From assembly GCF_053078305.1 (NCBI RefSeq), contig NZ_CP166879.1: a stretch of DNA of 64,000 nucleotides; one strand, 5' to 3'. The notes beneath the pieces were generated by a model. That model did no database searches. It saw only the letters and a list, made by a program, of their open reading frames with translations, and was not told the origin of the DNA. The translations under genes were made by a program, and so were the position numbers. This document shows positions 32,986-34,268 of the stretch, piece after piece; position 1 is the first letter of the stretch; every line of letters begins with the position of its first letter.

Positions 32986-33897
32986 GTGAGTACATTAGAA
33001 CAAACAATAGGCAATACGCCTCTGGTGAAGTTGCAGCGAATGGGGCCGAATAACGGCAGTGAAGTGTGGTTAAAACTGGAAGGCAATAACCCGGCAGGTT
33101 CGGTAAAAGATCGTGCGGCGCTTTCGATGATCGTCGAGGCGGAAAAGCGCGGGGAAATTAAACCGGGTGATGTGTTAATCGAAGCCACCAGTGGTAACAC
33201 CGGCATTGCGCTGGCAATGATTGCCGCGCTTAAAGGCTATCGCATGAAATTGCTGATGCCCGACAACATGAGCCAGGAACGCCGTGCGGCGATGCGTGCT
33301 TATGGTGCGGAACTGATTCTTGTCACCAAAGAGCAGGGCATGGAAGGTGCGCGCGATTTGGCGCTGGAGATGGCGAATCGTGGTGAAGGAAAGCTGCTCG
33401 ATCAGTTCAACAATCCCGATAACCCTTACGCCCATTACACCACTACCGGGCCGGAAATCTGGCAGCAGACTGGCGGGCGCATTACCCATTTTGTCTCCAG
33501 CATGGGAACAACCGGCACTATCACCGGCGTGTCACGCTTTATGCGCGAACAATCCAAACCGGTGACCATTGTCGGCCTGCAACCGGAAGAGGGCAGCAGC
33601 ATTCCCGGCATTCGCCGCTGGCCTACGGAATATCTGCCGGGGATTTTCAACGCTTCTCTGGTGGATGAGGTGCTGGATATTCATCAGCGCGATGCGGAAA
33701 ACACCATGCGCGAACTGGCGGTGCGGGAAGGAATATTCTGTGGCGTCAGCTCCGGCGGCGCGGTTGCCGGAGCACTGCGGGTGGCAAAAGCTAACCCTGG
33801 TGCGGTGGTGGTAGCGATCATCTGCGATCGTGGCGATCGCTACCTTTCCACCGGGGTGTTTGGGGAAGAGCATTTTAGTCAGGGGGCGGGGATTTAA
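32986..33897 (+). CDS. cysM: cysteine synthase B (O-acetylserine sulfhydrylase B)
   Basis: 303 aa PLP enzyme. Confidence 0.97.
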   Translation: MSTLEQTIGNTPLVKLQRMGPNNGSEVWLKLEGNNPAGSVKDRAALSMIVEAEKRGEIKPGDVLIEATSGNTGIALAMIAALKGYRMKLLMPDNMSQERRAAMRAYGAELILVTKEQGMEGARDLALEMANRGEGKLLDQFNNPDNPYAHYTTTGPEIWQQTGGRITHFVSSMGTTGTITGVSRFMREQSKPVTIVGLQPEEGSSIPGIRRWPTEYLPGIFNASLVDEVLDIHQRDAENTMRELAVREGIFCGVSSGGAVAGALRVAKANPGAVVVAIICDRGDRYLSTGVFGEEHFSQGAGI

Positions 33898-33899
33898 GA

Positions 33900-34268
33900 T
33901 TATTGCGCAGGCACTGTTTTATCCGTCTGCGCAATTAACGCATGTAAAAAAGGCTGTGCGTTCTCATCGCTCTTACCGGGGATCTTCACAATATACGGCT
34001 TCCCGGTAATCGATGACGACGAAGCAACCTTATCAATAAACTGCTCGGCAGTGTCAATGCGGTTACGGGTATTGCCCAGCTTCAGACGCAGATGAGAAAC
34101 CGCTTCATCGCAGGTATATTCATCACCGTTGCGCACAAATATCAAATCCTTTTTCTGTGCTAATCCCTCCAGCATGGCGTTGATGCGGGCTTCTTCATGG
34201 GCAGTTAACTTCGCGTAAGCGGGGAGTGTCATTAGTAGTGTAATGACCAGACAAATGATTTTCTTCAC
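33900..34268 (-). CDS. yfeK: secreted protein YfeK (signal peptide, DUF-type)
   Basis: 122 aa [19 protein letters not shown]...; stop codon 2 nt from cysM stop (convergent). Confidence 0.85.

Follow-up and report, generated by a model that had tools for sequence, protein, structure and literature searches.

How do two genes that face each other across two base pairs end their transcripts, and what became of the gene that separates them in Escherichia coli K-12? Both questions are raised by the cysM-yfeK junction in the stretch of DNA analysed here, 64,000 nucleotides of contig NZ_CP166879.1 (RefSeq assembly GCF_053078305.1), hereafter called the window. According to the list of open reading frames and to the RefSeq annotation of strain A16, the nearest genome (99.8% match), cysM (cysteine synthase B, 303 aa) occupies positions 32986-33897 of the + strand, with a TAA stop codon at 33895-33897; in strain A16, it is annotated as the final gene of the cysP-T-W-A-M cluster. 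On the - strand, yfeK (33900-34268) starts with GTG and encodes 122 residues ending in ...KTVPAQ*, its stop codon at 33900-33902 reading TTA on the + strand. The encoded protein belongs to the DUF5329 family (Pfam PF17263, E = 2.3e-31) and is named YfeK family protein in RefSeq. Sequence and ORF list agree with the first-pass annotation that cysM ends at 33897 and yfeK at 33900, their stop codons lying 2 bp apart, and the annotation of strain A16 gives the same layout. The 2-bp spacer at 33898-33899 reads 'GA', as it does in 9 sampled E. coli sequences devoid of yfeS, and 'GT' in Pseudocitrobacter faecalis. Beyond yfeK lies pdxK (34373-35224, + strand), which an unstopped cysM transcript would reach on the same strand.

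The 2-bp spacing of these convergent ends is ordinary for this region of the genome. RefSeq annotates nine convergent pairs within the 50 kb surrounding the junction in strain A16; the distances between their ends are -10, -4, 2, 5, 42, 49, 51, 57 and 140 bp, and four of the nine are at most 5 bp apart or overlap. Convergent genes separated by 0-5 bp and devoid of a canonical terminator are, in this region, routine.

With regard to the missing gene, the order pdxK-yfeK-yfeS-cysM that the first-pass annotation gave for K-12 is correct for strain MG1655, and the length of about 240 codons ascribed to yfeS is close to the actual one, K-12 YfeS being a 244-residue protein with a WGR domain. The gene is indeed absent here: a tblastn search with K-12 YfeS returned no similar sequence in the 64-kb window (best E = 1.7). 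The implication that this absence is odd did not hold, since the majority of E. coli genomes, along with the outgroup genera, also lack yfeS. The window is E. coli DNA, and a 1.1-kb query spanning the junction found matches in 5425 of 5426 complete E. coli genomes, the best being strain A16 at 99.8%. The junction is contiguous as in the window in 4038 of the 5426 (74%), notably in O157:H7, ST131, 83972 and ST69 genomes, while yfeS is carried by 1387 (~26%), including K-12, BL21 and NCTC86, the two states adding up to 5425 genomes. The same flanks are joined in most of the genomes and separated by an insert in the others, which is the mark of an accessory insertion site, and the window represents the unoccupied majority state of this variable site of the E. 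coli chromosome. The absence of yfeS should hence not be annotated as a deletion. Variation in the presence of yfeS between cysM and yfeK was already known, and the observation has little weight for general biology.

Alignment to MG1655 over pdxK-cysM delineated what separates the two states. K-12 has the gene order cysM, two REP elements, yfeS, yfeK, pdxK, and 967 bp of its sequence, with yfeS between cysM and yfeK (positions 1999-2965 of the extracted K-12 locus, L001), stand opposite 8 bp of the window, the empty cassette site GATTATTG at 33898-33905. The match over the locus is accordingly 2060 bp long in K-12 and 1101 bp long in the window. The K-12 segment is composed of a 188-bp spacer containing the two REP elements, of yfeS and of a different yfeK tail, the C-terminus reading ...PAEGN* in K-12 (three replacement codons, E-G-N-stop) versus ...PAQ* in the window. 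An 8-bp direct repeat, GGATTAAT, is found at both ends of the segment (L001 1999 and 2951), and the GC content of yfeS is 39.2%, versus 56.5% for cysM. This low GC, combined with short terminal direct repeats, points to a cassette of foreign composition; no associated integrase, transposase or tRNA target was found.

At the junction itself, the window contains a perfect inverted repeat whose 9-bp arms, ATTGCGCAG (33902-33910) and CTGCGCAAT (33927-33935), are 100% complementary and 16 nt apart. The first-pass annotation had reported this repeat with an end at 33934, one base short of the true one, and had placed it entirely within the last codons of yfeK; it does lie mostly there, but its left arm shares one base with the stop codon. 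On the cysM-sense (+) RNA, the stem is extended by a G.U and a C-G pair to 11 bp (33902-33912 / 33925-33935), leaving a loop of 12 nt. The predicted folding energy of the stem is -16.3 kcal/mol on the + RNA (11 bp) and -13.5 kcal/mol on the - RNA (9 bp). The stem starts 5 nt past the cysM stop codon and is located 0-35 nt from the two stops, inside the yfeK ORF.

That this hairpin is an unusually stable structure can be rejected, as 12.5% (+) and 24% (-) of the 51-nt windows of the 64 kb reach an equal or better energy, and the z-score of -2.67 obtained for the + strand fold arises only when the 51-mer itself is shuffled for comparison. Counts of inverted repeats tell more in its favor. In the 64 kb, 16 perfect inverted repeats of at least 9 bp with 3-20-nt loops were found, versus 4.5 +/- 2.1 in dinucleotide shuffles, and therefore one at a given spot is not expected by chance; this ~3.5-fold excess implies that many such repeats are functional, a point which counts against our main reading. 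Six of the nine arm bases constitute the palindromic hexamer TGCGCA, present twice and read in codons as xxT-GCG-CAx (Ile-Ala-Gln and Pro-Ala-Gln). The 9-bp repeat is, for the most part, a side effect of encoding Ala-Gln twice with common codons.

The hairpin is not credible as an intrinsic terminator. It had been regarded as the only candidate terminator for either gene; however, a second perfect inverted repeat with 10-bp arms and a 15-nt spacer lies nearby in the 3' coding region of cysM (33810-33819 / 33835-33844), where, for yfeK, it falls 55-90 nt past the stop codon on the - strand, likewise lacking a U-tract, and the hairpin itself is not terminator-like. What it shares with intrinsic terminators is a G+C-containing stem near the 3' ends of two genes, longer than the ~5 bp expected as a minimum (9 perfect bp, or, counting the G.U pair on the + RNA, 11 bp) and with 5-6 G-C pairs. 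It differs from them by its location inside coding sequence, by a loop of 12-16 nt where ~3-8 nt is usual and by the lack of a U-tract on both strands, the stem being followed by UAACGCAUGUAAAAAA on the + RNA and by AAUCUUAAAUCCCC on the - RNA (the sequence 3' of the stem reads UAACGCAUGU and AAUCUUAAAUCC, respectively). A consensus terminator scan made no call at the hairpin, nor did it report any + strand site across 32800-35400. On these grounds, the assignment was rejected.

A REP element was considered as well, as K-12 has REP/BIME elements directly 3' of cysM, at the same position as the hairpin of the window. Unlike these elements, the hairpin is single-copy, arm ATTGCGCAG occurring once in the 64 kb, and is devoid of the REP consensus: the REP-core pattern has no match at 33898-33940, while it matches elsewhere in the window at 11236, 11336, 21512, 32950 and 54872. 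This identity was rejected too. Similarly, Rfam has no family for the hairpin, the sole match in 33400-34500 being a chance-level hit to mir-23 (33592-33657), far under the gathering score.

How, then, would transcription end? Because a canonical terminator is absent for either gene, the cysM and yfeK transcripts would each continue antisense into the opposing gene, where they are probably terminated by Rho or by head-on collision. Rho is most plausible for yfeK, on account of its untranslated and C-rich read-through RNA. Over its first 280 nt, this RNA, antisense to cysM (33620-33899, - strand), contains 33-42% C with a C/G ratio of 1.4-1.9, and this C-rich, G-poor composition makes it a candidate Rho loading region. 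The cysM read-through RNA is weakly C-rich (C/G ~1.1-1.2) until ~200 nt downstream, and Rho termination of cysM is therefore less well supported. Head-on polymerase collision may add to termination, and the hairpin would be at most a pause site or a 3'-exonuclease barrier 5 nt past the cysM stop. As a whole, we consider it likely that the window is an empty, ancestral majority site, that K-12 carries a cassette inserted there, that the hairpin is not an intrinsic terminator and that the two transcripts are ended by Rho or collision.

A role for the hairpin can still be envisaged on the basis of a different class of terminators. Between convergent E. coli genes, terminators unlike the intrinsic ones have been described for which a stem-loop suffices and which are Rho-independent; on the basis of single-molecule experiments and SEnd-seq, it has been reported that the stem-loop positions head-on polymerase collisions at convergent genes (bioRxiv 10.1101/2022.10.23.513370). 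Bidirectional terminators are attributed to Ju et al. 2019 by Wang et al. in the same work (bioRxiv 10.1101/2022.10.23.513370). As these published stem-loop terminators are without likeness to intrinsic ones, the missing U-tracts do not exclude a role for the hairpin. In such a scenario, the hairpin would be a bidirectional terminator or pause devoid of U-tracts, holding both polymerases so that head-on collisions and trailing polymerases bring about release, and it would end the transcripts of the cys operon and of the sigma-E-driven yfeK alike. The resemblance is real: the genes are convergent, with the stem exactly at their junction (albeit inside the yfeK ORF), the stem can form in both nascent RNAs with the energies given above, the hairpin is itself unlike an intrinsic terminator, and no other terminator-like site is available to cysM up to 35400. 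Conversely, collision terminators are defined by overlapping SEnd-seq 3' ends, whereas this junction is known from its sequence, and the stem of the window is part of an ORF and has disappeared from close relatives whose gene ends are equally tight. The folding energy is ordinary for this genome, and ribosomes reaching the yfeK stop (33902-33900) would unfold the stem in the yfeK RNA, its codons being translated. Convergent traffic itself may be low in unstressed cells, given the sigma-E dependence of yfeK. Indeed, yfeK is among the sigma-E-dependent promoters studied (PMC3326320), and a sigma-E-type match (GAAACTT / 16 nt / TCAAA) located upstream of yfeK at 34302-34329 on the - strand would represent this promoter.

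Comparison of relatives bears on this scenario in both directions. Over 10 sequences devoid of yfeS, 76 of 77 stem cells are paired on the + strand, and all 10 retain the + RNA stem. Eight of the 11 stem pairs are invariant and compensatory changes are absent, no covariation being seen, while two one-sided changes (A-U to G.U and G.U to A-U) both leave the + RNA paired. In the E. coli species representative, a synonymous CCT-to-CCC change yields a G.U pair on the + RNA and breaks the stem on the - RNA with an A.C mismatch, contrary to what a bidirectional element would require. In Escherichia sp. E1V33, the arm nearer cysM is deleted with both genes intact; Enterobacteriaceae UBA5654, with a 1-bp gap, has no such stem, and in all yfeS-positive genomes the arm nearer cysM is altered, leaving a 7-bp stem. 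The hairpin thus appears dispensable, missing as it is in a sister Escherichia lineage and devoid of compensatory changes. In P. faecalis, it is identical although yfeK is only 83% identical overall. The patch of 97-100% identity with E. coli there (33906-34005) is mosaic and peaks beyond the hairpin, and it looks like the outcome of mosaic exchange or of protein-level conservation and not of selection on the stem. Collectively, the comparison does not show selection for the hairpin structure, and a bidirectional terminator at this site seems to us distinctly unlikely.

The second scenario places the hairpin after transcription. The cysM RNA would be ended farther downstream, and 3' exonucleases would then shorten it as far as the stem, which would act as a 3'-end barrier and stabilise the cysM message, a role usually ascribed to the K-12 REP elements at this locus. 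It is favored by the position of the stem just past the cysM stop, by the greater strength of its + version (in length, energy and z-score) and by the fact that both one-sided changes preserve pairing specifically on the + RNA. Furthermore, the yfeS-positive genomes, in which the stem is shortened, have two REPs after cysM, and REPs in 3' UTRs have been reported to act as terminator-stabilisers (bioRxiv 10.64898/2026.03.23.713779). Against it, this strand-specific preservation, relying on two variable pairs, is not significant, the folding energy is again ordinary, and the stem is missing from E1V33, from UBA5654 and from other genera. Such a barrier is judged improbable, more so than the bidirectional terminator.

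Taken together, a modest role of any kind for the hairpin, be it as a pause, in collision or as an exonuclease barrier, is unlikely, though its probability is not negligible. It is more doubtful still that in E. coli devoid of yfeS, some three quarters of the species, the stem serves as a U-tract-less bidirectional pause/collision terminator or 3'-end stabiliser that K-12 has replaced with REPs on the arrival of the yfeS cassette. Were this true, 3'-end maps of K-12 would not describe the locus in most E. coli. The locus offers in any case a natural allele pair for the termination of convergent transcripts, one with closely abutting genes and a stem inside coding sequence, the other with REPs as spacer, and a Term-seq data set of O157:H7 Sakai, one of the yfeS-less serotypes, has been described (PMC7547250).

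The preferred reading, in which Rho or collision ends the transcripts, also holds that the junction of the window is the older state, and this was addressed by examining other species. A scan for YfeK using one genome per species gave 22 loci, 10 of which have yfeK and cysM convergent; these 10 loci form the outgroup sample, which leaves Salmonella, Shigella and E. fergusonii outside. No insert separates the genes in the E. coli species representative and P. faecalis (stop-codon gaps of 2 bp each), UBA5654 (1 bp), Citrobacter amalonaticus (31 bp), Superficieibacter sp. 1612_C1 (32 bp), Entomohabitans teleogrylli (57 bp) and Escherichia sp. E1V33, in which cysM and yfeK overlap by 12 bp. Inserts are present in a Pseudocitrobacter MAG (gap of 941 bp, yfeS), in E. 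albertii (1819 bp, two ORFs) and in Superficieibacter electus (516 bp, one ORF). Insert-free junctions thereby amount to 7-8 of the 10 convergent loci, with gaps from +57 to -12 bp, and yfeS is found only in the Pseudocitrobacter MAG, eight outgroup loci of other genera or species being without it. The yfeS DNA of this MAG is 95.9% identical to that of K-12, versus 82% for yfeK, 89.6% for cysM and 70.7% for pdxK in the flanks, and both junctions of its cassette are identical to those of K-12. This pattern suggests that the cassette has been horizontally exchanged and has moved between genera.

These data support, within the limits of this outgroup sample, that the event was an insertion. The empty junction is probably ancestral, because the outgroups lack yfeS, the product expected from a deletion is absent and the cassette combines low GC with high cross-genus identity. 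In the ancestral state, cysM and yfeK would have converged with their stops 2 bp apart, and yfeS would never have been inserted in the lineage of the window. K-12 and approximately one in four E. coli would have acquired, at this junction, a low-GC cassette of ~0.96 kb bringing the two REPs, the WGR-domain yfeS and a replacement three-codon tail for yfeK. The opposite course, in which the ancestor was K-12-like and the 8-bp direct repeats recombined to excise yfeS from the line of the window strain, is very improbable: although the GGATTAAT repeats flanking the K-12 segment would permit such a microhomology deletion and yfeS occupies the same site in two genera, the deletion should have left a yfeK ending in ...PAEGN* and a 3-bp spacer, absent from all 10 yfeS-less sequences (10/10 have ...PAQ* and a 2-bp spacer), and it is further opposed by the eight outgroup loci, by the low GC of yfeS, by a cross-genus identity exceeding that of the flanks and by the lack of yfeS in the sampled O157:H7, ST131, 83972 and ST69 genomes.

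Read as an insertion, the locus is a case in which K-12 should not be taken as the reference state, its yfeS and two REPs being probably an acquired cassette. With its occupied/empty polymorphism, low GC, terminal direct repeats and cross-genus identity above that of its flanks, the yfeS segment resembles a strain-variable accessory islet; the window differs in having the empty site and none of the islet itself. PADLOC gave no matches that would assign a defence-system role to YfeS, YfeK or the E. albertii ORFs. The latter, of 280 and 175 aa, are carried by a 1.8-kb insert with 34.5% GC which is unlike the yfeS cassette, and the S. electus insert contains a DUF4440/SnoaL ORF. The inserts of other species start directly 3' of the cysM stop codon and displace the last few codons of yfeK.

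The yfeS cassette, a ~0.96-kb low-GC insert comprising two REPs, yfeS and a new yfeK tail, is absent from the window and is not restricted to Escherichia. In a Pseudocitrobacter MAG (L015, 3376-4316), it occupies the same cysM/yfeK junction as in K-12 (L001, 1999-2953), and the two cassettes share 95.9% DNA identity, compared with 82% for yfeK, 89.6% for cysM and 70.7% for pdxK in the flanks. Because the junction is identical and the flanks are less similar than the cassette, these comparisons imply that the cassette was transferred recently between genera. The REP cluster of the cysM-yfeS interval is interrupted in E. 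coli strain HYM1 by an IS1397-family insertion (L034, 1752-3101), which is annotated as IS3-like with a frameshifted transposase.

The last ~100 bases of yfeK (window 33906-34005) share 97-100% DNA identity with Pseudocitrobacter faecalis (L014), while identity drops to 55-80% across its 5' half; similar identity patches are present in cysM. This mosaic pattern between E. coli and P. faecalis suggests that recombination between genera has occurred near the cysM/yfeK junction.

The same junction holds other cargo. In E. albertii NBRC 107761 (L013, 3376-5194), it contains a different insert of 1.8 kb and 34.5% GC, whose two ORFs encode 280 and 175 aa; the second ORF has a weak DKNYY-family match under the Pfam cut-off. 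This insert replaces the yfeK tail, which now reads ...TVELKNK*, and supplies a hairpin of its own (GGGGCAG/CTGCCCC) with a T-rich stretch behind it, directly past the yfeK stop codon. Superficieibacter electus has a third, independent cargo: here a 140-aa DUF4440/SnoaL-like ORF (L020, 3473-3895) separates yfeK from cysM, with a 4-bp overlap between its 3' end and the cysM stop codon.

Small changes also affect the yfeK end. In Escherichia sp. E1V33, yfeK and cysM share 12 bp at their 3' ends, with both stop codons inside the overlap (L012, 1417-1428). This arrangement follows the loss of ~11-13 bp, including one arm of the hairpin found in the last yfeK codons of the window (33902-33910/33927-33935); both frames are intact and YfeK terminates in ...TVPSNP*. 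In O157:H7 strain 3384 (L008), a yfeK run has A5 versus A6 at window 33945-33950, and the gene is frameshifted according to the RefSeq annotation. Since the match to a 1.1-kb query is also 1 bp shorter in two further O157:H7 genomes, this frameshift may characterise the whole lineage.

Closely packed convergent ends recur nearby. Across 50 kb around the site in strain A16 (L033), a sample which is the counterpart of much of the window, four of the nine convergent pairs have ends at most 5 bp apart or overlapping: flxA-like/yfeR (-10 bp), yfeH/ypeB (-4 bp), yfeK/cysM (2 bp) and hemF/eutR (5 bp).

The 3' part of the cysM coding sequence holds an inverted repeat with perfect 10-bp arms, GGTAGCGATC/GATCGCTACC, and a 15-nt spacer (window 33810-33844); the repeat overlaps a GATCGC/GCGATC palindrome cluster and is followed by a U-tract on neither strand. 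Upstream, the cysA-cysM spacer (32868-32985) contains a REP-core match near 32950; a 118-bp REP-bearing gap therefore parts cysM from cysA. In the divergent pdxK-yfeK spacer, the minus strand at 34302-34329 matches a sigma-E-type promoter (GAAACTT, 16 nt, TCAAA), in agreement with the membership of yfeK in the published sigma-E promoter set (PMC3326320).
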